Origin: Trichodelitschia bisporula
Taxonomy: Eukaryota
Direction of reading: 5' to 3'
NCBI GenBank assembly: GCA_010356995.1
Contig: ML996696.1
Span: forward strand, 312,364 to 376,363
DNA: 64,000 nt
Shown here piece after piece: positions 10,160 through 29,972 of the stretch (positions are counted from its first letter, which is position 1; every line of letters starts with the position of its first letter). The notes under the pieces are model-generated. The model searched no databases. It saw nothing but the letters and a program-made list of their open reading frames with translations, and was not told the origin of the DNA. The position numbers and the translations under genes were made by a program.

Positions 10160-12737
10160 ATGCCCTCATTTCTCAAGAGCTTTCGCAAGTCTTCCGCCGC
10201 AAGTATCCGATCCAAGTTCGGTTCCGTTAATGGCAACAATGCTGGCGAATTTCGAAAGGCAGATGCGACGGACAAGACGGACAAGGTGGACAAGTCGGAC
10301 GAGACTCCCGACAGCGGCTCGGGCACTACCACCCCACCCAGTGAGCCTTTGACCGACCAAGATACGAACGCCAGCTCTGTCAATGGAAGCTCCGAGGTGT
10401 CCCTGGCGCGCCGCCCGAGTGTGATGCCAGGGACGGCGCACAGCAATCGTCATAGTGTCATCTCCATGGTGCGTACTCCTCCGTTAAGCTGCTGGTATCA
10501 CTACTAACGTCTATTAGAGTGGTATGACACGTCGGTCCAACGGACACAGCCCGCCTCCACTCTCGTACTATGCTCCGCATGTGACGTCCATCCGTGACGG
10601 CTATACTGTAAGACATGTGGTCCCTTGGTCCTGCAATTGCTAACTCCCGCAGGTGCATCAAAAGGTTCTGTTGATCAAGGGTCAGATCGGAGACCCTGAA
10701 AAGATTGGTGAGCTCAACAAGAGCAGCAATCAGCTGCCGACTCCGAAGCTGGTGGACGGTGAAGTCTTAATCCACCACCACCAAGACAGTTTCCCGCCCA
10801 TTCGTGTGCCGGTGGTGGACTCTCGTTTTAAGGCGCTGGTTCACCTGCAAGCCGGGCGCAACAACTTGTGTCTGGAGTTCTTCAAGGCGAGAGCATCGAC
10901 GAGCAATCTGTCTGTGCCCGAAGGCCACAAGAACTGGGTCACATACTCGTACCTTCCCATGAACGCGTCCCCACCGCTGCACCTGGCTCTGCTACTCGCC
11001 AAGGACTCTCCTGGAACATTTGATGCGGTTCCCGCTCGCATCGCCGCCGAAGGCAACGATCTTGAGACCGCCAAACGTAAGTTCCGTATGGCTGCCTATC
11101 TGTGGCAGGCATACACTGCGGAGCAGATGGGCCGCCATGGCTTCCACGGTCGCTGCTTCAGGTTCGAGGAGGAGTGGCAGACGTCTACGCTGGCCCACGA
11201 CGATCCGCCGCAGATGCGATCTGAGGCGCGCATTCACGTCATCCGGTTGGACGAAACTCTCGCGGAATTGCGGTCCGAACAATATGCTCAGAAGGATTGC
11301 GATACTACTGGCGGACTGTTCCAGATCGCCAAGGAAGCGTGCAAGGCACACTTCCCGCAGATTCCCGGACAGAAGCAGTATGTGGCTTGCATGTATCTCG
11401 ACACGCATTGGGACCAAAATAAGATCCTCGCGCATGCAGCAGCTGGCGGCTCAGACGAATCCATGGGGCTCGCCGTCTTTGGATCGCATGCGCTTCAGGC
11501 GTACCCGGCCAGTGTTCATGACGTCATTCCGACTTTCTCGGACTGCACTCGGACCGACACCCAGTTCGTAGCCAACGAGCTGCAGCAGTCTGGCAGCGTC
11601 TGGGAAGCGGCCACAGCCGCCATCAGCGCGCACCTCCATCAGGTCGGACACGCGTTTGGCCTCCCGCACCGCACCCACGGCATCATGGCTCGGGAATTCG
11701 CTCCACTGAACCGTTCCTTCACCGTCGGAGAGCCGTATTCGACGCGTACGCGGGCGGCCGGCCGTCGTGTGTGCCCGTCCAGTCAAGAAGCGAAGTGGCA
11801 CCGCACTGACTGTCTTCGTTTTCGGTATCATCCGTGCTTCCGTCACAACTTGGACTCCGTAGGACGCCCGATCCCGCCGGAGAGCAGCGCTGGAATCACG
11901 ATTTGGACCACCGAACACGGTCCGATGGCCAAAGCCGAAACCGGCATCGCTTGGATCGAACTGTACCGGGACGACGAGGAGCTCTCTGAAGCCTTCAAGG
12001 AACTCATCCCGCATCCCGGAATGCCGGGCAGTGCCTCGCCGCCAAGCCTCAACTGTCCAACCCGCTACAAGCTGGACGAGGTCGAGTTGCGCGATCTGCT
12101 GAAGCAGTCTGCTGGGCTCGAGAAGAATGGATTCAAGAGGCTGCGGCTGAAGATCTACTCCACGGCGGGTGGCTGCTACGAGGTGGATGATCTGTCCCGG
12201 CTGACGAGCAAGGAGATGCGTGTCAAGCTTCCCAGCGGTCAAACGGGCTTCCGTGGAGGTGTCGTCGGCCCCGGCCGCATCAATAAGCAGGAGACCATTT
12301 TGGATACAGTATGTCGGCGGGGACAACCCAAGATGCTCCTTGGTATCCGCGTCTATTTCGACACGGCTATCGATGGCCTCGAGTTCTTGTATGAAGATTC
12401 CTCGAGTCAGCTGATCGGCAACCGCGGGAACCAAAGCGAAGACTTTACGTTCGACATTCGCCGCGGCGAGACGTTTGCGGGCTTCTACGTGCGTTGCGGG
12501 ACGGCCATCGATGCGCTACAGGTTATCGCGACCACGACGGGGCGGAAGAGTCCACTGTTTGGCAACATATCGGCGGCAGGCGGGTAAGATTTTCCTCGAC
12601 TTCATTTCGTATGCAGAGCTCAGACTAATTTACCGCTCAGGTACTTCTTGATGCCCCCGTACGGATACCAAGTCGTCGGCATCACTACCACTTCCAATCC
12701 CTCGCTCGACTCGATGCAGCTCATTATCACTCGTTAG
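10160..12737 (+). CDS. Fungal zinc metallopeptidase-like protein with C-terminal jacalin-like lectin domain (YIL108W-like)
   Basis: Exons ~10160-10468, 10518-10607, 10653-12583, 12641-12737. Motifs FKALVHLQAGRN, PPLHLALLLAKDSPGTFDA, KFRMAAYLWQAYTAEQM, HQVGHAFGLPH plus GIM Met-turn; jacalin-type repeats (DGLEFLYED, GFYVRCGTAIDALQ). An in-frame ATG also exists at 10133. Confidence 0.85.
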
Positions 12738-12748
12738 TTTGCTGGGCT

Positions 12749-13190
12749 TCACCACATCTGCATTTCGTTGGCCCTACTTTCAGCATGTCGCGTACACCCT
12801 TGGTCTTTTGTAAGACTTTGCAGGACCCACACGATATCAGGACCATCGTCTGGGTCTTTCCATTGTTCATGTCGAAAATACAGGAAGGCATCATATCCCT
12901 GGAAGCCGAGGGCCGTGGCCACGGCTTTGGCGGCGTTTAGGTCTGGAGCTTTTGCTGGATGTAAATGGCATATGAGCATATCAACATCCAAGGGGGGTGA
13001 GCTAGGAGGCGGTCTCATTGTCTCGTCTGATAGAAGCCGGTGGGTTATTTCCTGTACATAACGCTCACACCCTCCCTGGATTTCCGCATCATGTTCGCTT
13101 TTCTTCTCCTGCATCCTCTTTGAGCTTTTTGAAGGCATTTTCGAGCGGTTAGGGACTTGTCTTCAGCGATTGATACCTGCTGTCAGCCAT
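12749..13190 (-). CDS. Possible small hypothetical protein
   Basis: 129-codon ORF (12749-13138) with protein-like composition; a short upstream exon ATGGCTGACAGCAG (13190) followed by GTATCA...CTAAC...AG could splice in frame. No family recognised. Confidence 0.3.
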
Positions 13191-14405
13191 TTCGTTTCAG
13201 GTTCCGGTAGGCTTTTAGAGTGCCGTCGAGGCAGCGAAGAGCGGCGCTTTGCGGTTCAAGGACGTGATGGCGGCACCGTAATGTAATGTGTTAGGCTTGA
13301 AGGCTTGTAGTATCCACGAGGAAGGTGAATGGATTCCGATAAGTACATAGAAACGGTTATACCCTCGTGGGGCGCAATGACGCGTTCTAGTTCTTGATTT
13401 TACGAAAGGTGCGTAGGACTTGCAAGTGATGTCGATAGTGATTTGAGCATTCAGCCTTTCGACGGACAGGGTCGAGGCCTATCTCGTGGCTGCCAATTAC
13501 CAGATTTTTCTGCAAGGCAGTCGCTTCCGTTTCAGGAATGCTTAACTCTAACGCCTGCATGTTCTCCAGGACGTTCCTATGCCGCCTATCTACTCAACCG
13601 TCTCAATAAAAGCACAATATCTTCATGCCATGTAGTTCACTACAGTTGAGAATGAAGTCAAATTTTTACATACTCGATATGTGTGTCTTTGAACTAAGAT
13701 TTTACTTTTATGTGTCCTTGACGCATAAGTACCTCGCGACTTCAGGATGAGAGCTTTTAGTGTGGTAAGTTCGCCAAGACTACGCGTCTGGCTATTCGAT
13801 TCAGGGGAAAGGGTGGGTATGCGTGGACGGATTGGATCCAAGAAAAATTATACGTGGTTGTAGTTCTTCCCGCGGTGCGGTCCAGAGTATGTAAGCAGGT
13901 TATAAATGTCGCTCTTTCTTCCGCCGTGTTGGGGAACATATGACAGGGCAGTGCTGTAAGCCTATTGGGTGCTGATGCAAGCTGCGCGTGCTGCAAAGCA
14001 CACCCCACCGTTGCAGCTGCTACAGAAGTTTGTTCTGTAGGATAATTATAGCGGCATCGGTACTGCAAAAAAATTAAATACATCTACTTGCAGTCATAGA
14101 ACCGCAAATCACCGCCGGGACCCAAAACCAGCCAATCAAGAAACGTGAAGCTGAGAAATGCGCGCCAATCAGGGCACTAGTTTCACACCTGAGCCATAAG
14201 AACGTGACCTCTAGCATAACAAATTTCATCACGGGTTTATCAGGTGTGAGAAAAATCTCAATCGCGCATCTCGTCGGAATAGATTCACCGAACCGCCGAT
14301 GATCTCAATACACCTATGTCAGAGGTGTGTGATTTGAATGTCACTCTAAAATTTGATTTCGCTACGCTTTAGCGGCTAACCGCAGGAGGATAGGGGGAGG
14401 GAGTG

Positions 14406-14437
14406 CGTAGGGGCGTAGGGGCGTAGGGGCGTAGGGG
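14406..14437 (+). repeat. (CGTAGGGG)4 tandem repeat, G-quadruplex-capable
   Basis: Four G4 tracts with 4-nt loops, preceded by further G runs from 14393. Confidence 0.85.
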
Positions 14438-14440
14438 AGC

Positions 14441-14599
14441 TCCCTTGTGCTGTGGGTTGTCCTCGCTGGTGCCCTTGCAACTGGCGCACCAATCTCCGAG
14501 CAAATTTCTTTAACGGAACTGTTCTGCAAGGAAAACGTTTCTCTCTGATTGGTCAGCTAATAAAGAGTACGCTAGCGGTGGTGCCCGCAGGACAAGAGA
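14441..14599. mobile_element. Degenerate MITE, 159 bp (subfamily B)
   Basis: Left end TCCCTTGTGCTGTGGG...CGCTGG...ACCAATCTCCGAG versus reverse complement of right end TCTCTTGTCCTGCGGG...CGCTAG...ACCAATCAGAGAG; TA after the right end. Confidence 0.65.
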
Positions 14600-16743
14600 T
14601 ACGTGCTTTTCTCATTTTATTTACAGTACCCACCCTACTCGGTTCATTAAGGCGATCTCAGGATATGTACCGTCCAGGCATAGGCATATGAAATGAAAGA
14701 ATATATGCATCTGAAAAGTGGGAGTTAGCTAGCATGATTGGCCAGCGTGCTTTGGAATACGTGTCTTTTAAATTGGTTGAGGCGGAGGGAGGGGACGACA
14801 ACACATATCCCATATGGCGAGTGCTCCGAGCTCTGGAGTGCACAAGTAATAATTCCGAAAAGAAGCCATTCACCTCGCCGGGTCTCTATGCAAGCAAAGT
14901 ATCTTTTTAGTGGTTCTGCTTCTCAAACACGGCTTTTAAACTCTACTTTCAAACCTTAGTAGGCCTCCGTCTAAAGCTTTTAGTATCCGCAGTTTTCCTG
15001 ACCACCATGCAATATTTTGACACTGCTGCAAAGACTTGGGTTGCCTACAGTCTAGGGAAAGCAACCCCGCAGTCGCAACTACTGCTTTTTTTTTGTCGAG
15101 CAATATGTTGACTGCGGCTTGGTACTTGCCATTTATCTAGGACGCATACTTTGACGCCACGGTATGCTTAAGAATAGAGGGACGAGTTACAAGCCATATC
15201 TACACTGCCCGCTGGCTTGCCTTTTGGGCAATGAGCTTTACCAGTACCTAAGGATTCCGGCTATCCGGAGTTCCACAGCATCCTGGTATGACTAATGTCA
15301 AACTGACATGAGCAAGTAACACTTTGGAAGGCGGAGGTTATCATTATAAAGGAGTAGGCCAACTACCAGGGACACTTCCCGACCTGGACGGGACGTTTGC
15401 TATCATCATGTTTCAGGGTCTAGAAGCGCGGTAAATTTATGGCGAGCAGTTCTCTTATTTATTATCACAATATACATGCTGTCTACTTCCTCTCTGCCTG
15501 CACTTCTCACTGCAACCAAATTCTTGTAAAGAGAACTCATACTCCATGCAACGTGTTAGACCAGCATGGTAGCCAGAGTCCGGCTGAGTTGTGCAATAAA
15601 CGTGCAGATTTGGTTGGTCAAATGGGTAAATGAGGTAACCATTACTCATGAATCCATCACCCATGGATCGATGCCAGCTACTCCCCTAGCGGAAGTCATT
15701 ATGCGTAAATCCCACAAATTTGAGGTGCGCACCTTACATGCGCGCCCTCCTTTATCCCAAATGAAAAACACCTTCGTTTAAGAAATACAAGCCAGGTTGC
15801 CATGTTCACCCCTTCAAAGCTACTGAAATTATGTAGCTGCATAAATAGATGGAATCTATCTACGCAGAATTTAAATTCAGTTTTGCTAGACCCCCCCTTA
15901 CATCCACACCGTCATATGCAGCCAAGAGACCCCCATAACACTAAGGGGTTAAGCTATGCCTTGTACTAAGGGTGTCCGCAATGGCATCATTATGACTGGC
16001 CTGGCGTTGGAGCCTCCTCCCCACTGGGAAGGAAGCTCCGGTCAGGGTTTGGGTCGACACCCAGGCTCTTTCCTTGAGCAGACATAGAGGGTTTGCTTGT
16101 TTGGCAACCTTAGGCATATCAGCCGTCCTATGCTATATATAGCTTGCTTCCTCCCACATCTCTCACCAGGCACCATCTCTCTCTCTCATTCACGCACTCC
16201 CACGTTTGTGACGTTCATCCAAGCTCTGATAAAAACTCATGGGGTCCGGCATTAAAAAATAGGCTTACAATTTAGGCCCCGGGAGCCTGGACGCTGGCGA
16301 TGGAATAGCGGGATGGATTGGTAATGCCTCTCGGCGGTAGACGATAAGAACTTTGTCCCGAATCACCGAAGCTACCCAAGGCAGCTCTCGAAGTACACTC
16401 ACATTCCGAGTCTGGGTATTATGAACACTAGGGCAGACCGGACGACGCTACTTGAGCGCCACAACGAGACTGTGATTGAAAAAGATAATTTGAGGGCTAC
16501 GGTGAAATTGAGAGGAATGCATGAGACTGCGAAAGAGGCGTGGCTTTGAATGTAAAGGGGTGCGCTGCACGGTTTACATTGGAGATTAGGAGACAATCAT
16601 GGAGCGCTGTAGCAGAAGCCAAGCGTGCGTTAATGGATAAGTATCCTCTTGCCTTTATTGCAAAGTAGATCAGTCAGCAAGGTACCGGATAGAAGCTGGA
16701 ATAGCGGTTAGGTGGCGGTTGCAGGATGGCCAGAACACGTTTA

Positions 16744-16909
16744 TCGCAGAGCGGGTCTCCTCGCTAGCGTCCGCGTATATGCCGGAATAATTCAAAGAGC
16801 AAGAATTTAGTTCTATAAATGCTTCTCTATTTAGGTAACAAATTATAGCTTTCTGACCGGTCCATAATAGCGAAATAGTGGGGGCCGAGTACCTGGGGCG
16901 TACATGGGA
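16744..16909. mobile_element. Degenerate MITE remnant, ~166 bp
   Basis: Right end GTACCTGGGGCGTACATGGGA-TA matches the subfamily A TIR; left part GCGGGTCTCCTCGCTAGCG resembles the subfamily B TIR. Confidence 0.5.
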
Positions 16910-18349
16910 TAGTAAAATAATAAACTCTACAAAAATATCACTGGGGCCATCGCAGTGTCAATAATTTGGCTTACTAAACCAACATTAATGATCGGATTGA
17001 TCTTTTTGCAAATCAGTCGGGTAAACATGCTCGCACCTTAAACCTTACATATCTTTTTTACGCCTAGCTTCAATGGGATCCTGGCGCTGCTCGTAGGGAA
17101 AGCGGTGCTGTGCAGCCGAGTAATGTTTTTCCGGTAGGTGGGGGTGGCTAAAGGAGACTTAAATTATGTGTTGCGTCGAGACAGCTCTAATGAAATAAGA
17201 ATTAGTGAGACATCTATTTCGCATAGATAAATCGCCATTCGAAGTTGCATTAAAAAGCCAAGTGCTGAGGGAACCATTGACAAGGGATGGGGTAGTGCGC
17301 AATAAAAAGGGACTTCGATGGATAGCCTTACAAGTATGCTCTAACAGAATAGCGTTAACTTTAAGAATGACCTGCTACGGTGTTTGCACAATTATATATC
17401 CTGCATAGAACGCAACCCCGATAAGCGGGATTGACATAGACTGGAGGAGGTTTTAGAAGGTTGTTTATTACCTACCTACTAACGACTAACAACTTTTACG
17501 TTATGGAAAGAAAGGGGATAGATAATGAATATGCCTGTGGAAGTATATCACATTGCAACCAAGCAAAGGAGCTCTGTTATCTGCTCAGTATCGTCCCAGA
17601 GTTTCAATGGTTCCGCAAGTCCAGTTTATACATTTATATGTCGTCGATGATAACCGTATTATCGCCGCGAGCCTATCCATCTCCAGTAATGCAACAGCTT
17701 GTATACAAAAGAAATTCCTTGTCTTTTTATTTTATCAAGTAGGATCTGGCCGAGCGTGGGCAAAGTAGGAGAGGGACGGAGTAGAATGTCGTAGATGGTA
17801 AAGTTCCTAGTAATAATGTATGGCCTGTAGCATTTATGCAAGCGGGAGCATTTTCTTAGTAGCAGGCGCTTACTGAGTAGAGCGTATGCGACGTCTATAT
17901 CTCCGTTTTCTCTCGGGGAATCTCTTGTACGGCCCAGGTACTGGCTCAGGTACTTGTTGGCTACGTACCCGCAATTATGTACCAATTAGAGAGCTCAAAT
18001 TTATGTCTGTAACAATTTCTTTGGGTGCTTGTAAATTTACTGCCCAAAAACTTTCATCAACAGCCCTCCCGAAAGTTAGTCCCTAAAGGGGTAAGGGTTC
18101 CTCGCAATCCTTACGCTTACGTAACTAGCGCCAAAATTACTGCCGTACCTAAACCAGTGACTTATTAGCCACATACACCCTACAAATCTTGGCCAAGATC
18201 CTATCAAAAAACTTACCGCAACTTCAAGTCGCGATGCACTCATGCCACAGTATAATATAAAATTGCAGTTAAGTTCATTTAAATTGCCTTAGCGCGGCGA
18301 GTATTTTGGCGTGCCTTTTGTCGTATTGGCATTATTATAAAAAGAGTTA

Positions 18350-18488
18350 GCTTTTCCTCAACCCTTCCAGGGGGGGGTTTTGCCGTGTGGAACCAAAAGA
18401 ATTGGTCAAACCCACTCATAAAGTGGTGAGACCCGACCATGTGGCTAGCTAAAACAAGCCTGGGCGTAATCAAGCTATTATTATTATT
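18350..18488 (+). mobile_element. 5'-truncated non-LTR retroelement 3' end, copy 1
   Basis: Ends GCCTGGGCGTAATCAAGC-(TAT)n; flanked by direct repeat ATTATTATAAAAAGAGTTA (18331-18349, 18489-18507). Confidence 0.85.
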
Positions 18489-18522
18489 ATTATTATAAAA
18501 AGAGTTATTATGGTTTGAGGTT

Positions 18523-18719
18523 AAACATATGTTGAAGGCGTGGGGCTCACATGCCCCTCTCCAAAGGAAGACTTCCAGGGCTTTTCCTCAACCCTTCCAG
18601 GGAGGGTTTTTGCCGTGTAGAACCAAAGAAATTGGTCAAACCCACTCCTAAAGTGGTGAGACCCGACCATACGGCTAGCTAAAACAAGCCTGGGCGTAAT
18701 CAAGCTATTATTATTATTA
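18523..18719 (+). mobile_element. 5'-truncated non-LTR retroelement 3' end, copy 2
   Basis: Same 3' sequence and (TAT)n tail; direct repeat TTATTATGGTTTGAGGTT (18505-18522, 18720-18737). Confidence 0.87.
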
Positions 18720-18773
18720 TTATTATGGTTTGAGGTTTTGTAGTACTTGGTTTGGGAGCCGCAGCTAGCCATA

Positions 18774-19244
18774 ATAATAATAGCTTAATTACGCCCAGGC
18801 TTGTTTTAGCTAGCCGTATGGTCGGGTCTCACCACTTTAGGAGTGGGTTTGACAAATTTCTTTCGTTCTACGCGGCAAAAACCCTCCCTGGAAGGGTTGA
18901 GGAAAAGCCCTGAGAGTCGTCCTTTGGAGAGGGGCATGTGAGCCCCACGCCTTTTACATGTGTGTATCGTCTTTTCTTTGCACCATTCTTGTGTGTCTCA
19001 AGCGAGAACTTGGCTGCACGCCGAGAAACCGAGAAACACTCCATATCCCAATTAAACCCCAAAAACGCCGAACGCCTACAGCAACGCAGATCCCGTGATT
19101 CTAGGTCATGTGATCGAAGAGAGAAGGAGAGGAAGGAAATTGCGGAATGCCAGGTGGTGTCCGGAGGCCGCCAGTGGGGGCGGCTCTTTGGGGGAGATCC
19201 GGCTCCTGGTAGCAAGGGTTGTGTTGAATCCGCTCTTCTTCACG
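18774..19244 (-). mobile_element. 5'-truncated non-LTR retroelement 3' end, copy 3 (longest, inverted)
   Basis: Reverse complement of copy 2 over ~190 bp plus ~280 bp extra 5' sequence; direct repeat CGCAGCTAGCCATA (18760-18773, 19245-19258). Confidence 0.87.
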
Positions 19245-19868
19245 CGCAGCTAGCCATACTTAGCCATGAAACCTTCAATGCGCGATAACTCTCTACTATG
19301 CAGCGAAATCTTAATGAGAGTGGTATCCAAATACTCGCCGCATTAAGGCGATTAGGATGAGCTTTACTGCAGCTTTATGTCATATTGTGGCATGAGTGCA
19401 TCGCGAGTTGAAGTTGCGGTAAAATTGTTGATAGGGGTTTGGCGTAATACACGTGAGCAAATATAAGTTCCGGCGGTGTTTGTGGTGAATTGCGTAAGCG
19501 CACGTTGGCAGCTGACTTTAGCCTTTTGGGACTAATGTCTCGGAGGGCTGTAGATGAAAGTTTTTAGGCTATAGATATATAAGCACCCATTGCTTTGTTT
19601 CTGCAACAGGTCCTAGTTCTTTGATTGGCCCGTAATAGCGGGTACGTGGCCGACAAGTACCTGCGCCAGTACTTGGGCCAGTACAAGTGCCGTACAAGGG
19701 ATACTACACAGCAACGGTTCCCAGCGGTCGGTGTTCTTTGGCTGGATTATCTTGGCAAGGTATCTCTTATTAATAGGTAAGTCCCGATTCTTTGAATTCC
19801 CTTCGCTCACGAAAGTGCTCATCCAGTTGTTTCCTACACGGCAGTATTATGTAATACCTTTCTAGCTG

Positions 19869-20074
19869 TCCCTTGTACGGCCCAGGGACTGGCGCAGGTC
19901 CTCATTGCATACGTACCCGCTATCATAGACCAGTTGAAGAACTAGAATTCATTCCAGAAACAGAGAAATCTTCACGCAACTTTTTTAAGCTCTTTAATTG
20001 GTCCATGATAGCAGGTGCGTAGGCCACGAGTACCTAGACCACTACCTGGACAAGTACCAGGGCCGTACAAGGGA
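19869..20074. mobile_element. MITE, 206 bp (subfamily A)
   Basis: TCCCTTGTACGGCCC...GGGCCGTACAAGGGA termini with ~80 bp imperfect inverted arms; TG left, TA right. Confidence 0.85.
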
Positions 20075-20314
20075 TATATCTCCTGGCTACTATTTCATTT
20101 CAGTGTAAAGCACGAATAGCATAAGGGTAGAGGATGTATACTTGCGCTCAACTTATTATTATTTACTCCATTCCTTGTATCTTAAGCTCAGATGCGTAGA
20201 GCGCATTTCAGAGGTTAATAAGGGAGATTGCACGAAATTTATATTAGATAAGCTATTCAGTTCAGTTAATTTTCCGATTACACTCCGAACTCAAAACGGC
20301 TTTGGACGTTGTTA

Positions 20315-20376
20315 TCCCTTGTACGGCCCAAGTACCTGGGCCTGTACCTGGGCCAGTACCTGGGCCGTATAAGGGA
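20315..20376. mobile_element. Minimal 62 bp MITE (subfamily A)
   Basis: TA-TCCCTTGTACGGCCCA, three GTACCTGGGCC units, GTATAAGGGA-TA. Confidence 0.85.
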
Positions 20377-20834
20377 TATGGTAGAGCTGAATTAGTTATT
20401 GAGTGGACAACCGCCATTGTATCCGCCTTTAAGGCTCTTTAGCTAATTCATAGTCTCGATGGATTCTAGGAGATACGCCGTTTACTCCCTTCAACTTTGA
20501 ACTAAGTCCTCCGCCTTAGAGGATATATCCCTTTATCTATCTCCATTGCCTACCTTTCAGCAGCTGAGCGGAATATCCAATGTCGAAACCTCGCTCTTCC
20601 GGCCCCTGATTGAGTGTTCGTGCTCTTGCAGTGGGAGTTATTAGGCGAACTCCCATAAAGCTCAAGACAAACATATAATTTGCATACGCAGAAGTCCAGG
20701 CTACAGCAAAACGACATTTTTGAGGAGTACATTCCAGTTTTTCACCCAGCCTTCCCCAAACTTTGTAGTTGAATAACGAACTTCCTTTGAGCTGCAGTCG
20801 TGATTCATTCATGACACAGGTTTCACATCATATA

Positions 20835-20989
20835 TCCCTTATTGCGGGCATCCTCACGGGCGTTCTCGTAACTGTGGCATCAATCAGAGAGCAGGGTCCC
20901 TTTACATAATCATTATATCACACATTTCAGCCCTCTGCTTGGTCCGCAGCTTACGAGACCGCCAGCGAGGACGCCTGCAGTATTAGGGA
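20835..20989. mobile_element. MITE, 155 bp (subfamily B)
   Basis: TA-TCCCTTATTGCGGGCATCCTCACGGGCGTTCTCGTAA versus reverse complement of right end TCCCTAATACTGCAGGCGTCCTCGCTGGCGGTCTCGTAA; TA on both sides. Confidence 0.8.
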
Positions 20990-21908
20990 TAGGTTTTCGA
21001 ACGCCTCAATAAGACAACAGGGTTGACGTCTTATTTAACTCAATAAAATTATGAAAACTGCATAATTTAGCTACAAAATATGTGCAGCTTTGGCCGGCAT
21101 ATCAGAATGCATTTTCTGTAACATCGGCCTTCGAAACGGGCCGCTGGAGAAGAGCTTAGGAAAGGTGTTAATCTTATGGTGCTCGGAGTGTACACTTTAT
21201 GATTCCTTTGGTACCAATAGTAGTTAGTATGGTTCTACTGCACGTGTGTATTCGCTAGGGAATTGGTCGTTAGTCTATCCGGTTGTCTCTAGCTCAATAA
21301 ATGGAAAGCGCTTACTTCCCTCCGGTTCTGGCTTCAATGCAAGCCCCATCAAAGGCTTGTCCGCTCACGGATTGGGAGATTAGTTAGTCAAGATTTTTGC
21401 ATCAAGGCAACTATATGTTCGTAAGTGGCCGAAGCAGGACAAGAATTTCGGTTAGACCTACAAACACGCCCCCTACGCCCTCCACACCCCATGACAATTA
21501 TTGACTTTGACGAAGCTCCACGGAGACCGAATTTGGTTTATCAAACTGCCTGGACGGCACTAGTAAGCGGGCAGCATTTTTATTTTTATCAAACGGCATC
21601 TCATGAATGCAGTGCGATTTGAAAGTTTTGTAGCTTATCGCGGCTTAACTCCCTATTACCCTATCAAATCATGAGAAGTAACGAAAGTCCAGTAAAATGC
21701 CCAATTTTCTAAGAACCCCAGTTTCTGTTCGAGACGATGTATGACTCATTACAGCTGCCCTAACGAGATACACGACCTGGCACGTATTAAGCTGATATCC
21801 CTTTATAAAAGCTTGTTATTTAGGTATACAGCAGTGCGACATCAAAGATTTTAAGTACTGCAACTTTCTAAGGCCCACGCCTCTGATTGACTGATATCAG
21901 AGGAGGTA

Positions 21909-22060
21909 TCCCCTGTACGGCCCAAGTACACGCCCAGGTACTTGCTAGCATGGACCAAGAAAAGCGCTCGGATTTGTTGCGAGACTGAGAATTCTTTACA
22001 GAACTAAATCGAGCTCTTCCATTGGTTTATGCTAGACCAGTACCTGGGCCGTACAAGGGA
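21909..22060. mobile_element. MITE, 152 bp (subfamily A)
   Basis: TA-TCCCCTGTACGGCCCAAGTAC...GTACCTGGGCCGTACAAGGGA-TA; inner inverted CTAGCATGGACCAA / TTGGTTTATGCTAG. Confidence 0.87.
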
Positions 22061-24427
22061 TAGATGGGTCGTTTGTTTTTCAAAAGACATATTGGATGCA
22101 TACCTTGATCATCATAAGCTGCAGCATTGCTCCCTGGTTACCACTAAGACTCATGATTTTTTAATGTTGAACTTCAATTTGCGATGCAGTCATAATGTGC
22201 TAAAATAGAGATCAGTTGTATATCATGAGATTAAACTCATTAGGGCGAGGAATCTGATACCACATTTCAACGTAGGGGGTTTGGCCCGGCTTAACCCCGC
22301 TCCTAGACGCTTTTGCAATTAACTTGCTGTTTCCTACACATGTGGCCGTCTGCATGGACCTTAGGGAACCGTATTTGGCGTATAGTAGAATATATCTATC
22401 TTCTGCGCTTGGATCAATGAATATATAGGAAGACGCTTCAAACTTTGTTTTGTATGGATCAGGGTAACAGTATAGTAGTTGCTTAGCTCTATATTTGCTC
22501 GGGGAAATTCTCGTCAGGTTACTGGCCGGCTGGATGGTTTCTATTTAAGGCATTGTCCCAAGAAACTTTCGGTACTCTCACATAATTCATGAAGTACGGC
22601 TTAAGATCTTCTTTGAGATCGAGTCTATGGATGTCAAGATTGAGGCGTCGGTGGGGTCTGCTGCACGACCTCCTCGTTGTGAATCAACCGCTAGCCTGGT
22701 GCTGTCTGTTGAAACTACATGTACAAATTATGGGTAACAGGTGTACCTATGAGAACTGTGGGAGGACCTCTCTCGCGATACAGTATTTACGACGTATGCA
22801 GGCTTGTTGTGAGAGTCCGTAAGGCATGTCCTGGTATGTATCCCTTCGATTGCTGGTGTCATCGCTACGTCCCTCGCTGTGTGACGTGCCATGGTGAGAC
22901 GCTGTCAAAGCTTCATGTTTCTCCACCTACGTCTGCCACAGCTGCTAGCACATCATCTATCAAGGAACGCGCCCTTACGGCCATCAATAATGACAAAATC
23001 ATTGCCAGAGCTGAGAGCGTTGCATCACTCTGCCATGTCCTCCCATTTCGCATTGTGCCATTTTCAAAATTTCCGACGCTATTCTTTGTCTACCATGATG
23101 TGGGCGTGGAAGGAGCATCCTTATGTCAGGAAGGGGCGTATGTAACGCGAGCATGATAGAAGGAAGGCGCAAAGGAAGATACTTGGCATTGTGCATTTAG
23201 TTTCGAGAGCTTCTGACTCTCTCCTTCTCTTTGTCTTCAACTTCAATATTCAGTGACATATGGAGGATTTGGCGCACTTTGAGAGTTGAACTTTGTACTT
23301 AACGCTTTTTGCGTACGCTCTTTATGCCTCTGTGAGCCCTGGTGACCCGGCATTACCCGGCACTCGGGTTTTTTGGTGTTGAAAAATCCTGTCCACACAT
23401 TGGTCAATGAAGCATGATGACATAAGCGAGGGCCTGGCAGTCGAAGAGATGGATGGCGGCATGAAGCTATTCGGGGTCCTCCCGATGTGACGCTTGCTAA
23501 TCGGAGTACCCTAGCCAATGTTAGTTACTCAGTAGACCTAGAGAAAAAAGTTAAGGCTTTGGACTATATAGCTCTTGCATTGGTATGGATGAGGAATCAA
23601 TCGCTGTCTTGCGGGGTTTACTCCAACGTCCGCCTGTGCAAATAGTTAGTGACCGGCGAAACATCGGACCCAAACGCTCACCAGCTTGAATAGCGGCCAG
23701 ACTGCAGGTTGAACGGTTTTCTGAGAGTAGAAGCTGATAGCTGTTGTTGGTATTCTCAGAAGACCGCCTCGTAGTGCGCTGCGGCAGTTTCCCAGCCATC
23801 ACAGGCTAAGAAGACTTGAATCTGATGAGGAGGCGGACTTATGACCACAACGAAGGGCTATTGCACCCGTAAGCCAATGGTGAAGGAGCTCCTCATCGCA
23901 TCTATTACGGTCAGGCATACGCGTCGACCAACAAGACATTAAGTGGCATTCACATCCAAATATGTTACAACACAATAGCCAATGTACTCCTCAAGGCGCT
24001 TGCCGACGCTACCCACTACACAAGATACAGGACGACAGAAAGTCAACAATCATTACGACAGCGCAAAGGTCTTCCGACTGGAAGTAAACGGCAGAGCAAA
24101 AACCCAGTCACCAATCTAGCGCAAACCGAACGGACTATTCATAACCACCTCGTCTCTCCCAGTGGAGACGGCAAAGAAGCAAAAGTCCAAAGGATACCCA
24201 AAGCTCCTGCACGCCATTTTCCCGACGACTCAAAAAGATGCCACCGCAAGGACTCCAATATTTCCCCTAGAAATATGTTTTACGAATTGAACCGCCAGGT
24301 GGACTTGCTCCCTAGAGCGAGCCGACCAAAAATTACAAAGCATTATCTGACGTCATCTTCCTCTGTCCAAACCCAAAGTTCAGGAAACCAAAGAGGCGGC
24401 AGCGATGGTGGACCGCGCGAGAACCGC

Positions 24428-27400
24428 TCAGTCGCCGGCCGATGTTGCTGATACAGTCGCCGTGACCGGAGCGGCGGTTGTGTTCGCGAGACTGACGCCG
24501 CCCGCGTCATCCACATCTTCCGACCCGGTGACGTTCCCTGCAACAGACTCGTCAGCAGATGAAGCTGAGATGAGCTTGCTGAGGACGAGCTGCTCGGCCG
24601 GGTCGGCAACGAGACGCAGCGTGGAGGTGTAGCTCGCCTGTGCAGAGTTCGACTTGATGGCCGACGCTTCACCGGCCGCCTCGTTCGTCGCATTGCTACC
24701 GTCCGCTGCGACCGATACGGAATTGCGTGCTTCGCGCTCGCGGCACATCTTATCTTTGGCTTGTTGTGCCGCCATTAGAGAGTCGATGTACGTGCGGAAC
24801 TTGACAATCTCCCGCAGGAGATAGGCCGACTTCTTCTCCCAGTTTGCCATGGCCTTGGCCGCATTCGGATGGCGAGGCGAGAACTGTCACCATTAGCACT
24901 GAATCAAAGGAAAATACCAGGGGCAAACTCACCGCCATGCCCATCAGCGGCCGCAGTTCGTTGTGCCGCCGCAGGTCCTCTTCAACGTTCGTCACGTACG
25001 CCGTGAGTGCGCGCAGCTGGTCTACCTCCATAAGGTTACTTGCCATCATGCTCTGTTGCGGCGGCATCCAGTCGCTAATCGTGACGCGGTCTCCTGGAAG
25101 GCGCGCCCGGAACGTCCCAGGGCCGTGATCATCGCTACGCCGCGAGTCGGACCCACGTGATAGCGGACTCATGGGCGTGGTGCCGGTCAAGCGAGACGTC
25201 GCCACGCGGTCGCTGTGATGGCTGTGCAGGCTGTGACCACCAGTCGACCCTGCAGTCATCGGAGGATGTGCCGATTCCGGCCGCGAGCCTGGACGACTCT
25301 GCCCCGCTGCAGCCGAAACCACGGCATCGCCCCAACCATACTCGATGTTCGACACACCCCCGCCGAGCGGCTCCTTGCTCAAGCGCGCCGACCAATAGTT
25401 GGCGGTGCTCACGAACTCCTTGGCAATCTCCGGAGTGCCGACGTGGAACAAGTGAACAGCACCCGTCGGCAGAGATAGCGCCCAGACATGCGGCCGCGAC
25501 TTGGAGTACCCCGGCGGTGGAAGAGTGCTGGCAATCGTCTGGCGCAGCAAGAAGCTGACCACCTCCTCAGCGTTCTCGGTCCAGTTGCCGCCGCCGACCA
25601 CGTTGCCGGCGCTAGAGCTCGTCACCGGGCGCTTCGGCTTGTGGCGGGCGTGCTTCGCATTTGCGTTGAATGAAAAGAGACGCATGAAGCCCTTTTCAAT
25701 AACGGCGAAGCACTCACTCCACCCGCGCTCTTTGGCCTTTTTTTCCAGCGTCTCGAGGTGGTGCTTGTGCTTGACTATGCCCTCCTTCGCCCATGGCGGA
25801 CCAGCGAGTTCGAGCGTCTCATCTTCAAGCAGTGGCACGACCCGGCCACAGTCTTCGGTACCGGCATTGGCCTCTTCGCGGATGTTGGCCTGGCTCAGCG
25901 CGTTAGCAAAGCCGATGGCCCGCTGGTAGTCACCGTGTGCAAAGTGCGAGCCGAGCGAATCGACCGACATCGACGTAGGCGTCTTGCCGAGCGAGTACTT
26001 GCTCCACGTGCTGCCGGCAGGACTCCACACGGACTGATCGTCGAGGCTGGTACGGCTGGAGCCGATGGTTGACGAGGGGTAAACGCGTGGACGTGACCGC
26101 GGCTTGGAACCAAAGCGTGCCGTGGCAGTCCGGAAGTCGGTCGAGCGGCCGCGGTAGCTGACAGTATCAGATGGAGCCTTGCTGAGCACACTCGGGGTGC
26201 GGCGTAGGGCGTTGGTCACGACGGAAAGACCACCGCTGGACGCTTCGGGAGGAGGGTTTGAACCGTGAAGTGGGAGGCACTGGGTGCGGATGGAATTGTA
26301 AAACTCCTTGAGCACAATCTCCACCTGAAACTCCCACCCCTTCATGCCACCTTCGTACGGGGCCTTGACGAGCACGTTGCAGTTGTCGATGGTCTGGTTG
26401 TCGGACGACGAGCCCGGCCCCTCAGAGTCAGCGCGTGCCGGTGGCCGGATGGACAGGCGGTTGCGTGAGCGGCGCGTCTCGAGAGAATGGCGCTCGGCGG
26501 GCTCATCGGCCGCAAAGACTGGGGACGAGGGCGAGTTTGCCTCCCAGTTGCCACGGGAGTGTCGGCTCTGCGCTCGGACCATCTCGGCCTGCGTTGGGAG
26601 CGCGGCGTCGGCGATACTCCGAATGGTCGGCAGCGTATTCTTGACGAATTGGTTGCGCGTCATGCGCTGCTCAATGTCGGCAATGTGCAGATCGGTATTA
26701 AGCATAAGCACCGAGTACGTAATAGTGTGTACAACGTCGCGGTCCTTGAAGCCGTGGCTCGGGTTGCAGTGGCACCAGCGCTCCGAAAACGCGTCAATGA
26801 CGCGGTCCAGCTGCTGCGACTCCGCCTTAACAACAAGACGGCAGCAAAGCTCGCGGAAAGCGGCGAGGATGTTAACGCCAGCCCAGTCGAACAGATCCAT
26901 GTAGGCGCGCCGCACGCGCAAGCTCGTGGCGTTAGTTTGCCCAAGCCAGGCCGCAGCACCTGACTTGGGGACGAAGCTCTCGTCACCGTCGAAGATCTTC
27001 TGCGCGCGGTCACGGTCGTCGGCAGTAATTTCCGTATCCTGCGCAAGTATCGCCTTGGAGCCGTCCGTGTCAGCCCACTCGGGGACTAGCTCGCGGTTCT
27101 CAACATGCACAACAGGCAAGCTTGTCGCCGAGGAGAAGACGTCGTTCTCGCTCGACGGAGACAGCTGGTCGCTTAAGCGGTCCGAGGTCCGCGGCCCTTC
27201 GAGTGGCAGTGACAAGCGGGCCGACGCGGGTAGCTTCTCATCGGATGAATTGCCGTCGAGCCACAGGCGACTACTATCACCCTGAGTAGTCACTGCAGAC
27301 GTCATATACTGGTCGTCGTCGTCATCATCAAGCAGGCGGGAGGGTTGATCATCGCCGGGCAGACGCACCGAGCTGAGGTAGTCGATGCGCTTCTCGCCAA

Positions 27401-29261
27401 TGTTTGCCCGGCGCGGCGCTGGCTCATCCAGCCGGACCGTGGTGGCAGAGTATGGAGATGATGTCGGCGGAGGCGACCGGTGCGTCGAGAATGGCTGGTC
27501 GTCGCCGCTGTTGTCGGCCAGGAACGAGCCACCGTCCATGTCGCCCACGAAGCCAGATGACGGTCGGTTGCGCTGATTGATATTTGCGGCGAGGGAAAAC
27601 GGCGACCGGTCAACTTGTACGCTTTGCACGCGGAGCTTGGTGGTGCCATGGCGCGGTGTGCGGTTCTCAAACTCGTCGAGGAATGGTGGACCGGTGGGCG
27701 CGGGTCGGGTGGGCGCCTCCGAGCCCGTCGTATTGTGCGGGGAAACATCGCGACCGCGGTCAAAGTCATGCATCGGTGGCTGGTGTTCCTGTGAGTCGAA
27801 GTAAGTTTCGAGCGGGCTGCGGGGACTAGTAACCTTGTCGGCGAGATAGGGGGCCATGACATTGCGGAGGCTACTTGTAGTGGGGCTTGGTTGTGCAGGG
27901 GTGATTCCGTTCATCCTCGAGTATTTTTGCTGCTGGAACGGCTGCAGCACAGGGACCGGAGGAGGCATGGTCTCAGTGAGTGACTTCTTTCGGCGCCGGA
28001 AAAAGGAAGAGTGCGACTTTTTCAGAGTGCCGGTGTAGCCGATATCTCTGGACGACGATGGGTCCTGAGTGGGTGGTCGAGATGACGAAGGCTTGGTTTG
28101 TGCCATGTGCTGCTGCGCAGGTTGAGTTCGCGGTCGACTGGGCGTCACGTTCGACGAAGTTTGCCGCAGCGGCGGGGACGGATCGTGCTTGTCGTCCTGA
28201 GGCTGCGGAGCCGGCGAGCTGTTCTTGGAAGAGCCGCCACCAAAGACGCGTCGGAAGAAGCCCGGTCGTTCCTTTGGTGCTGGCTGAAGCACGGGAACGG
28301 CGGGATAGACCTTTCGTGACGATACCGTTGGGCTGGGCGCCGACGGAGTAGACGACGCGTGCACGCTCAGCATGTTGTTCGTTTGCTGGACAAATTGCTT
28401 TGCTTGGTCACGAATTGCCGGATCCATAGCTCCCGCCTGTGTCTGGCTCTTTGGCTTTCTCAGGGTCCGTCCACCGGTCGTCGACCTCATGCTGTTTTTG
28501 CGCGAAGGGGCCTTCCTCGGCGTTACGGGAGACGGCAGGATGGCAGGCGAGAGAGATTCTGTCGGGCGCCGAGGACCCGCAGGTATTGTGGGCGTCGGCG
28601 CAGCATCATCATCGTCGTAGTCCATGGAAGGCTCCGACAGATTCCGGTCCAGCATAGGCACTGACGCCTTCTTGTGCGGTGACGGGCGCTGCACACGCTC
28701 CGAAAAGCAGCTCTGGTCGAAGCTGGCGGCACGGCTGGGCCCGTGGGCGTGACGGCCAGCAGCAGCAGCAGCACTTGCACTGCTGCTCACAAAGCCGTTG
28801 CCCGCTGTGTATCCCAGATCCATGCTCGACGAGCCACTCCCCTTGCTGCCCTTGATGCCAGTGCCGCGGGAATGTCGCGGCCCGTCGTGGTCCGGACGCG
28901 TGCTGTTGCTGGCGGTGCTCTCGGTGCGGGTGGGACGCTTAGACTGGGATACGTTGCCACGACCGCGAGAGTGGTAGACGGCGTAGCGACTGGCCGTGTC
29001 GTCGACGTGCAGATCGTAGTCGGACAGCGAGCTCGTGGCCGTGTGGCCGCGTCGTCGGCCGGAGTTGCTTGGAGCCTTGTGCGGACTGGTCGTGTAGATT
29101 TCGGTAGTGGCGTCGAAGTCATTGAAGGGCGAGGTTGAATTGGATGTAGAGGGGAAGTCGGAGAGGGACAGGAGCATGGAATCGACGACGCTGAAGCGCG
29201 TAAAGCGCAATGAGAGGTCATGGGAGTCACGCTCGCCGGCGGGACGGTCTACGAGCTCCAT
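24428..29261 (-). CDS. SYT1: Sec7 and PH domain ARF guanine-nucleotide exchange factor (Syt1-like)
   Basis: Sec7 (LVVKAESQQLDRVIDAFSERW; SVLMLNTDLH), PH (WAKEGIVKHKH...WSECFAVIEKG...ANYWSARLSKEPL); intron ~24932-24885; last exon ANWEKKSAYLLREIVKFRTY. Confidence 0.88.
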
Positions 29262-29972
29262 TGTGGCATGGCAAGCAGCACCCTCACACCTGCCGTGGAA
29301 CGGAACAGGGTTGTAGGGGGGATGGGTTCTACGTGCGTGTGGTTATGTGTGGTATCTGGTGTGTGGTGTGTGGTGTACTCCGCAGGCAAGGGAATGTGGA
29401 GAAAATGCGACAAGAGCACCGCAGCAGCCGCAAGCGCGAGAAGACGGTGAAGAAGGCGAAGAAGCAGGGGCAATGGGTGTAGGAACGAGCGTTGTGAGGC
29501 GGATTGTCGTGGTCGTTAGAGTGTGGTGATAGTGCAAAAGATGGTGTTGCAGCAAGAGAGCTGAAGAATCATGGGCCGAGTCCTTTTCTCGAGAGAAGGA
29601 GCGAGAGAGAGGAGGAGAGTTGAGACGCCGAAGAGAGGGGAGGCTTGACGCGCTTGGGGCTTGAGACCATGGGGATGACAAGGTCAGTTGATTGGCTGAT
29701 TGTCCTGGTAAAGAGAGAGGGGAACTGCAGGGGACTCAAGACTGGATATGGAAGGCGCGTGCTGTCCAGGGGAAGGAGCGAATTGTGGAGAGTCTTCTCT
29801 TCTTTTTTTGCTTTGGGCAGGGACGATCGATGGTTTCCCGATGGTGATGATCCTTGTTGGTGTTGAGCCGAACTTCATACACTACCGTACGAAGGTATGA
29901 ACGTCATCATCATGTTCATCATGTTCATCGTGTTCATCATGTTCATGATCTGATATGTATTGACAATCGAAA

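Follow-up and report, generated by a model that had tools for sequence, protein, structure and literature searches.

Three separate retroelement insertions in the central spacer of a palindromic MITE of Trichodelitschia bisporula

In a 64-kb stretch of the genome of the little-studied Dothideomycete Trichodelitschia bisporula (hereafter the window), three copies of one tailed retroelement, all with the same 3′ end, have inserted within 51 bp at the center of a small palindromic MITE. The copies are supported as three independent insertions of the target-primed reverse-transcription type, each with a tail, an exact target-site duplication, and a 5′ truncation peculiar to it, and the centre of the MITE is a real local hot spot for insertion. 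With a probability of roughly 0.6, we favor the explanation that target-primed reverse transcription, on three occasions separate in time, placed 5′-truncated copies of one dispersed non-LTR family into the central spacer of the MITE, with short TAT runs as the main cause of the hot spot.

Results

Repeat finding, blastn, and alignment delimited copies A (18350-18496, + strand), B (18523-18726, + strand), and C (18774-19244, − strand), which lie in two orientations and are 91-95% identical to each other. They are the sole blastn matches in the window (3/3 at E ≤ 1e-3), and a self-comparison of the window returned only these copies and the family of the host MITE. The 3′ end of the retroelement family reads ...GCCTGGGCGTAAT(C/T)AAGC followed by (TAT)n. 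The tails, (TAT)7 in A and B and (TAT)4 in C (TRF and string check), abut the 3′ duplicates of their target-site duplications, and the bodies upstream of them measure 126, 183, and 462 nt, giving three different 5′ ends. Over 201 nt, copies B and C are an inverted repeat of each other (94%), with 53 nt between them. The features of the insertion site are the following:

18331-18349, + strand: duplication A, 5′ copy; TAT run of 8 nt, then 11 unique nt
18350-18475, + strand: body of copy A, 126 nt, the shortest and most diverged (repeat finding, alignment)
18476-18496, + strand: tail of copy A, (TAT)7, its last 8 nt indistinguishable from the start of the duplication
18489-18507, + strand: duplication A, 3′ copy (string identity)
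18508-18522, + strand: duplication B, 5′ copy; 15 bp (18 from 18505), 11 nt of it unique
18523-18705, + strand: body of copy B, 183 nt (repeat finding, alignment)
18706-18726, + strand: tail of copy B, (TAT)7 (TRF, string identity)
18723-18737, + strand: duplication B, 3′ copy (string identity)
18738-18759, no strand: host spacer between sites B and C, 22 nt
18760-18773, − strand: duplication C, tail-side copy; on the minus strand, TAT plus 11 unique nt
18771-18782, − strand: tail of copy C, (TAT)4, its first 3 nt common to the duplication
18783-19244, − strand: body of copy C, 462 nt, the longest, yet 5′-truncated when set against copies elsewhere in T. bisporula
19245-19258, − strand: duplication C, copy on the 5′ side of the element (string identity)

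String identity showed all three duplications to be exact: ATTATTATAAAAAGAGTTA at site A (19 bp), TTATGGTTTGAGGTT at site B (15 bp, or 18 bp if taken as 18505-18522 and 18720-18737), and CGCAGCTAGCCATA at site C (14 bp). Since each copy has a different exact duplication and a different 5′ end, and both orientations occur, the copies result from independent events. The original prediction of three (TAT)n-tailed copies of one 3′ end that differ in 5′ end, orientation, and duplication was thus borne out by alignment and string identity, and the signature of target-primed reverse transcription that it described (tail, exact duplication, and 5′ truncation) is present in all three copies.

The duplications open with a TAT run of 8, 7, and 3 nt at sites A, B, and C, respectively, and in each of these three sites, the only ones available, the run is followed by exactly 11 unique nt. 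Homology between tail and target in the form of TAT, also put forward from the sequence beforehand, is therefore found at 3/3 sites. Outside the tails, TTATTAT occurs on either strand at six loci in the window, two of which are sites A and B; the other four (15459, 16923, 20153, and 54315) are without insertion. The longer string ATTATTAT occurs at only two loci in the window, one being site A. Site C has TAT alone, of which the window, once emptied of the copies, holds 1279 sites. The most A+T-rich 60-mer overlapping sites A and B reaches 73% AT and ranks within the window's top 0.07%.

The insertions also differ in apparent age. Over the 129 columns common to the three copies, A carries eight unique substitutions, C four, and B none (exact multinomial p = 0.0097), and these counts argue that the insertions probably occurred at different times. 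Repeat-induced point mutation (RIP) was rejected as the source of the divergence because the substitutions mix transitions with transversions (six and five, respectively, between B and C in the alignment).

The host of the three copies is one member of a MITE family found in this part of the window:

17921-19701, no strand: M1, the host MITE, 1781 bp as found, 923 bp without insertions, TA-flanked
19869-20074, no strand: M2, 206 bp, outer arm parts only, no insertion
20315-20376, no strand: M3, 62 bp, terminal inverted repeats only, TA on both sides
21909-22060, no strand: M4, 152 bp, TA on both sides
16883-16909, no strand: M5, a solitary right terminus followed by TA

Removing each copy together with one duplicate leaves the 70-bp empty site that had been predicted (19+15+22+14), and the emptied M1 is almost fully palindromic. 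An alignment of its arms covers 385 nt at 71%, the best block of the inverted repeats being 115 nt at 83%, and its DNA fold was calculated at -234 kcal/mol. The motifs quoted in the original prediction as evidence of a restored inverted symmetry pair as an apical stem in this reconstructed fold. The prediction had also placed the insertions at the apex of the symmetry; they do lie at the center of a long inverted-repeat element, but this center is a weakly paired and weakly symmetric spacer of 164 nt and not a tight hairpin tip.

The proposal from the sequence that the host is a foldback (FB) transposon fits its long inverted-repeat arms but calls for qualification in view of its TA flanks and its family. 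The family comprises members of 62, 152, 206, and 923 bp with a common terminal inverted repeat, whose consensus, TCCCTTGTACGGCCCAGGTACTGG, was obtained from an alignment of nine termini, and TA precedes seven of these nine (the exceptions are AA and TG). As regards strict FB features, M1 has the long arms, its tandem subrepeats (a 12-mer repeated 2.4-3.0 times, identified by TRF) are confined to the tips, and its flank is TA and not a longer duplication. TA-flanked terminal inverted repeats and small non-coding copies of varied size are what is expected of Tc1/mariner-type MITEs. As TA flanks are a mark of Tc1/mariner-pogo-type mobilization, the host MITE points to this type of mobilization and not to a duplication of the Drosophila FB kind. 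No transposase or other transposable-element protein was recognized, as none of 10 ORFs tested in the 12.6-24.4 kb island reached a Pfam cut-off.

Within the 963-nt reconstruction, the insertion points are at 450, 465, and 501, and the geometric center of the element is at 483; all three are hence within 33 nt of the center of M1 and inside the 164-nt spacer. The three copies occupy three different sites within 51 bp and not one fixed target position. The probability that three random TAT sites fall within 60 bp is P = 8.5e-6 in the emptied window and P = 1.4e-4 in the 10-kb low-GC island, both values being post hoc because the locus was picked as striking.

Protein-level comparisons traced the retroelement beyond the window. 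In T. bisporula, six gene models located on as many contigs (P0121 and P0123-P0127) are repeat-derived or share its upstream part, and on this evidence the family is shown to be dispersed in the T. bisporula genome. P0121 and P0124, which lie on other contigs, match copy C at 65-90%, and P0121 aligns by tblastn to 19246-19116, in copy C. Both proteins carry an identical stretch of 52 residues upstream of the 5′ end of copy C, which shows that copy C, measured against them, is itself 5′-truncated. A HMMER scan of 1.84 billion representatives matched, at E ≤ 1e-3, P0121 itself, P0123, and P0122; the last, a repetitive protein of 1125 aa, was set aside as unrelated.

Judged by tail, duplication, and 5′ truncation, the copies are of the non-LTR type, but no autonomous partner came to light. 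The 64-kb window contains no recognizable reverse transcriptase or endonuclease, and protein searches linked none to the repeat. The names LINE and Tad clade used in the original prediction are putative; a LINE of the Tad1 clade would be expected to carry an ORF2 with an APE-type endonuclease and a reverse transcriptase falling with Tad1 in a tree. Neither the searches with longer proteins (the 47-aa frame of copy C and P0121) nor the HMMER scan joined a protein bearing a reverse transcriptase to the repeat. P0123, P0124, and the frame of 47 codons at the 5′ end of copy C had no Pfam match. A SINE head was not detected either (ARAGORN, no genes; Rfam, none at the gathering score) in the part searched, which stops short of the true 5′ end of the family, and tRNA, 5S, and 7SL gave no Rfam match at the gathering score or at E ≤ 10. 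All that Rfam matched at E ≤ 10 were weak, hairpin-type similarities to miRNA precursors and sRNAs at 18624-18866, which correspond to the B/C inverted repeat and are not RNA genes. The predicted RNA fold of the 3′ end is no better than that of shuffled sequences (z = -0.56 over the final 202 nt and +1.01 over the whole of copy C). The three copies are nearly identical and offer no covariation. An exact 22-mer of the conserved 3′ end had no match in bacterial and archaeal contigs, as expected for a fungal repeat, and our literature search returned no treatment of the transposable elements of T. bisporula.

Discussion

Targeting by TAT runs is the better-supported part of our explanation, compared with targeting of the palindrome apex. 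In the mechanism that we propose, the nuclease and reverse transcriptase of the element would begin at a short TAT run. The bottom strand, which after nicking ends in ...ATA(A/AT), could pair with the (UAU)n tail of the RNA, or the nuclease could read TAT followed by two purines; as the position of the nick within the TAT run cannot be fixed, microhomology and nuclease specificity are not separated by these data. The second strand would then be cut at a fixed distance of 11 bp past the TAT run. The hot spot would stem mainly from two TTATTAT runs located 20 bp apart in the center of the MITE, among the most AT-rich stretches of the window, with the addition of a TATGG located 36 bp further on the other strand (site C). 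A further local boost might come from the inverted repeat itself if, as it is replicated, it gives rise to mismatched hairpins or single-stranded DNA. Sequence alone hardly accounts for three insertions made at different times within 51 bp. It also counts against TAT-run targeting that site C offers TAT alone, that the four further TTATTAT loci are empty, and that the perfect (TAT)7 tails, which should be the best homology targets, were not re-used. The hot spot at this one locus could be caused by short TAT runs, DNA shape, or both.

It is possible, although in our view unlikely, that the targeting is directed by structure: the machinery would prefer the unpaired center of long inverted repeats, where loops, mismatches, or stalled forks invite nicking, and TAT would fix only the exact nucleotide. 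The clustering at the center of M1, in a poorly paired spacer, is far tighter than the density of TAT sites predicts, and palindrome centers are described as hot spots for breaks and insertions (e.g., PMC6489244, PMC7999016). By analogy, human L1 ORF2p is reported to need single-stranded DNA beside the duplex that it nicks (PMC10830416), and the L1 endonuclease to be ~40-fold faster at mismatches and to act mainly on DNA structure (PMC12809410), but the enzyme at work here need not behave like that of human L1. Apex targeting, as originally predicted, thus agrees with the position of the insertions but comes from a single locus; given a cluster in a 923-bp host, the chance of its falling within ±33 nt of the center is ~7%, which is suggestive and not decisive. 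Moreover, none of the three other complete members in the window (M2, M3, and M4) holds an insertion. Imperfect arms and long spacers disfavor cruciform extrusion in duplex DNA, and with arms 71-83% alike and 164 nt apart, the extrusion invoked in the prediction is unlikely for M1. Among the matches listed in our search of the literature on LINE insertion at palindromes, cruciforms, and hairpins, there was no report of a retroelement targeting palindrome centers. A family-wide version, in which the retroelement would prefer the unpaired centers of palindromic MITEs and other long inverted repeats and recognize the shape of the DNA (a single-stranded loop next to mismatched duplex), with the TAT run setting only the priming register, strikes us as distinctly unlikely.

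Another explanation is that one insertion begets the next, the tail, transcript, bound proteins, or local chromatin change of a resident copy drawing later copies to its side. The differing ages (8/4/0) imply that the later events took place next to a resident copy, and the TAT run of site B is only 9 nt beyond the tail of copy A. We nevertheless consider this highly improbable. No resident tail served as a target, and each duplication contains 11 nt of unique host sequence. The substitutions suggest A as the first arrival, C as the second, and B as the last, and the oldest copy, A, truncated to 126 nt, cannot have templated the longer B and C. The literature surveyed documents no such mechanism for non-LTR elements. 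Finally, next to no weight can be given to an assembly error, a duplication (tandem or inverted), or one complex event of the twin-priming kind, since, although twin priming or misassembly can give the shape of the B/C inverted repeat, a single event would leave only one pair of duplicates while each copy here has an exact duplication of its own and of different sequence, the copies differ by 6-9% and in their 5′ ends, and their removal restores a coherent host.

Several known systems resemble parts of the explanation by TAT-run targeting of a MITE center. Kachroo et al. are said to have first found Mg-SINE, in 1995, inserted in the inverted-repeat transposon Pot2, and Tx1L of Xenopus reportedly inserts in the DNA transposon Tx1D; the latter is likewise a case of a non-LTR element inside a DNA transposon, that is, of one mobile element inserting into another. 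Tx1L-like and microsatellite-specific elements use one fixed sequence site, whereas we found three sites with three duplications, and unlike for Tx1L-like elements, there is no evidence in T. bisporula for a family confined to the host MITE. Drosophila FB elements make a duplication of 9 bp, in contrast to the TA flanks of M1, but foldback and MITE transposons share with it long inverted arms that take up almost the whole element, termini built from short tandem subrepeats, and, in its family, deletion derivatives (62-923 bp).

Target-specific non-LTR lineages have been reviewed (PMC4640811). MGL and Mg-SINE of Magnaporthe and the Tad1-clade LINEs of Dothideomycetes are like the present copies in that these fungal insertions are described as having duplications of 10-20 bp, simple-repeat, microsatellite-like tails, and frequent 5′ truncation (PMC2104539). 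A fixed-length duplication is likewise reported for a Tad1-clade LINE of Zymoseptoria (12 bp in 8 of 11 copies; PMC4522978). However, three hits in one 51-bp stretch are not described for the MGL, Mg-SINE, and Tad1 systems in the literature surveyed. In RTE-related LINEs and SINEs, according to Nishiyama and Ohshima (2018), the 3′ microsatellite correlates with the first base of the duplication and a spacing rule based on the helical turn applies (PMC6007223), as might be the case here; the duplication of those elements is said to start ~10 nt downstream of the T stretch, whereas here 11 nt separate the end of the TAT run from the cut of the second strand.

From a biological perspective, the unique part of the duplications, constant at 11 nt, gives a concrete and checkable rule for second-strand cleavage, and the locus adds two new families in T. 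bisporula, one of retroelements and one of MITEs. If only TAT runs are targeted, the locus is a textbook example of nested insertions. If the center of the palindrome attracts the element, it would link in vitro findings on human L1, namely the single-stranded DNA needed by the nick and the fast cutting at mismatches, to a natural pattern in a fungus. The reading of DNA shape, if true, would offer a natural instance, on a genome scale, of target-primed reverse transcription guided by structure, where one class of transposons acts as a landing pad for another.

Three copies of one retroelement end

We found one sequence present three times in 18331-19258 (repeat search, blastn and alignment), with 91-95% identity between the overlapping parts. 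The copies have a common 3' end followed by a TAT microsatellite and, as their body lengths indicate, start at three different points. Each is flanked by its own exact direct repeat (string identity).

Retroelement copies and their direct repeats
18350-18496, plus strand: copy A, body 126 nt, tail (TAT)7
18331-18349 / 18489-18507: direct repeat of copy A, ATTATTATAAAAAGAGTTA, 19 bp
18523-18726, plus strand: copy B, body 183 nt, tail (TAT)7
18508-18522 / 18723-18737: direct repeat of copy B, TTATGGTTTGAGGTT, 15 bp, extendable to 18 bp
18774-19244, minus strand: copy C, body 462 nt, tail (TAT)4
18760-18773 / 19245-19258: direct repeat of copy C, CGCAGCTAGCCATA, 14 bp

No further copy was detected in the 64-kb window, as all three blastn matches are A, B and C, in agreement with the self-comparison. 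The original prediction, which interpreted the locus as three LINE insertions at the apex of a foldback transposon, described the sequence correctly in all checkable details, including its 70-bp empty site. In the 129 columns common to all copies, A carries eight unique substitutions, C four and B none (exact multinomial p = 0.0097). On a simple master-copy model, the insertions would have occurred in the order A, C, B, spread over time. The pattern of changes is not RIP-like (B vs C: 6 transitions and 5 transversions).

The tails of copies B and C face each other, and the two copies form an inverted repeat (18517-18717 / 18771-18971, 201 nt, 94%, 53-nt spacer) with sub-threshold miRNA-precursor-type Rfam matches (e.g., MIR4240, 71.8 bits vs a cut-off of 200). 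If transcribed, it could give rise to hairpin RNA or siRNAs directed at the retroelement. Separately, the sequence TCAACTTATTATTATT at 20148-20163 is 88% identical to the final 16 nt of the retroelement (body end and tail). No convincing duplication was seen around it; a fourth insertion with extreme truncation and a chance match are both conceivable.

Identity of the retroelement

A conserved protein encoded in the window assigns the genome to Dothideomycetes. Codons 1-47 of copy C match a hypothetical protein of Trichodelitschia bisporula, P0121, and its cluster-mate P0124 tracks copy C for ~285 nt through two frames. These two proteins have identical 52 residues upstream of the first base of copy C, the first 33 of which are common to four other models (P0123, P0125-P0127). 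Since the models reach past the 5' end of copy C, this copy is truncated as well, and the length of the family element comes to about 620 nt or more. The location of the six related models on six different contigs shows the family to be dispersed. All six are annotated as hypothetical proteins (71-148 aa), share the beginning MKASHHKADGPQPEP... and lack a Pfam domain. The models seem to have been called on copies of the retroelement repeat, and are probably annotation artefacts, not genes. A stretch at 18535-18624 resembles residues 7-36 of P0123 (37% over 30 aa, E = 5, not significant); this weak likeness of the upstream part to the element's own 3' region could reflect an internal duplication.

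Longer-protein and HMMER searches found no reverse transcriptase joined to any of the six models, and retroelement-related sequence contained no Pfam domain. ARAGORN and Rfam detected no tRNA or 5S head in the part present in the window, the 3' RNA fold is unremarkable, and the conserved 3'-end sequence had no matches in bacterial and archaeal contigs, as expected. The copies may be the 3' end of a LINE, for which the original prediction suggested a resemblance to the Tad clade, or of a long non-autonomous partner.

The host element and its surroundings

Excising each copy with one duplicate restores a 923-bp element whose termini match those of smaller elements close by.

The host element and its relatives
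17921-19701: M1, host element
19869-20074: M2, MITE family member, 206 bp
20315-20376: M3, MITE family member, 62 bp
21909-22060: M4, MITE family member, 152 bp
16883-16909: M5, solitary end, MITE family terminus

The halves of M1 are inverted copies (385 nt aligned at 71%; best block 115 nt at 83%), and, when single-stranded, the reconstructed element is predicted to form a single long hairpin (-234 kcal/mol, DNA fold). The terminal consensus of the family, TCCCTTGTACGGCCCAGGTACTGG, includes a 12-bp subrepeat in 2.4-3.0 copies and is preceded by TA at seven of nine aligned termini. The family termini, TA flanks and absence of coding sequence therefore identify the host as a TA-flanked, non-coding, palindromic MITE; its shape is foldback-like, as had been proposed, but its TA flank is not that of an FB element. 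Related TA-flanked MITEs of 62, 152, 206 and 923 bp and the solitary end form a nest at 16883-22060, and sequence comparison suggests that the short members arose from the long one by internal deletion.

The surrounding region is a gene-less island with a GC content of 43-48% vs 54% in the window, and none of 10 ORFs tested in 12.6-24.4 kb reached the Pfam cut-off. The island is 11 kb long (13000-24000), with a putative metallopeptidase gene on one side (10644-12587, PF12044) and a Sec7/PH-domain gene on the other (24750-29342, minus strand); the MITEs and copies A, B and C are its only repeats in the window self-comparison.

A common target rule

All three duplications open with a TAT run, ATTATTAT (A), TTATTAT (B) or TAT (C), followed by exactly 11 unique bases.

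Non-TAT 11-nt parts of the duplications
18339-18349: AAAAAGAGTTA (A)
18512-18522: GGTTTGAGGTT (B)
18760-18770: GGCTAGCTGCG (C, minus-strand reading)

This hints that the second strand is cut at a fixed distance beyond the TAT run, equal to one turn of the helix. Two readings fit the duplications, and in both the second strand would be cut 11 bp beyond the run. The first-strand nick may lie at the run's left edge, freeing a 3' end (...ATAAT, ...ATAA or ...ATA) that would pair with the (UAU)n tail, much as poly(A)-T pairing works in L1. Alternatively, the nick would fall at the right edge, with a nuclease recognising TAT plus two purines. Other clades are known to show such matching of tail and target and a spacing by helical turns (PMC6007223), and a Tad1-clade LINE with a fixed 12-bp duplication is described from a related fungus (PMC4522978).

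Clustering at the palindrome centre

M1 occupies 22-944 of the 963-nt reconstruction and is centred on 483; the insertions fall at 450, 465 and 501, none of them more than 33 nt from this centre. There is no tight tip here: the 164-nt spacer between the innermost well-matched arm blocks is poorly paired, apart from a short stem (TTGAGGTTT with AAACCTTCAA) already pointed out in the original prediction. Outside the tails, the window contains no more than six TTATTAT loci; sites A and B, separated by 20 bp, are two of these. ATTATTAT is present at two loci, namely site A and 20148-20163. The 60-mer overlapping sites A and B is 73% AT (top 0.07% of the window). The MITE centre is therefore an unusually good sequence target.

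Nevertheless, sequence accounts for the exact sites within the spacer better than for three events there. The post hoc chance of three random TAT sites within 60 bp is P = 8.5e-6 for the window and 1.4e-4 for the island. This tight clustering, the TAT alone at site C, the lack of insertions at the remaining four TTATTAT loci in the window and the (TAT)7 tails, which never served as later targets, point to a contribution from some further local factor.

DNA structure drawing the retroelement to the palindrome centre is an unlikely candidate for this factor. Work on human L1 lends the idea credibility: ORF2p requires single-stranded DNA next to the duplex that it nicks (PMC10830416), and the L1 nuclease is ~40-fold faster at mismatches (PMC12809410). 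However, the enzyme here need not behave like that of L1, this is a single locus, and the three smaller relatives of the host in the window are all uninterrupted. Diverged arms and long spacers generally disfavour cruciform extrusion from duplex DNA. As the arms of M1 are so diverged and its spacer so long, extrusion is unlikely here; it is easier to envisage a hairpin forming in single-stranded DNA at replication. Attraction of later copies by a resident one is more doubtful still, as no tail served as a target. Since each copy has a separate duplication, twin priming, tandem duplication and collapsed assembly are ruled out, and an artefactual origin of the triple copies is extremely improbable.

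Clusters of nested transposons are a common feature of Dothideomycetes; Zymoseptoria has 78 (PMC4522978). The literature searched yielded no paper on T. bisporula transposons, and none among the matches listed reported retroelement targeting of palindrome centres. The retroelement and the MITE are both new, each of an already known kind. The triple insertion is a striking anecdote, which would be of interest only if such insertions were enriched at inverted-repeat centres genome-wide.
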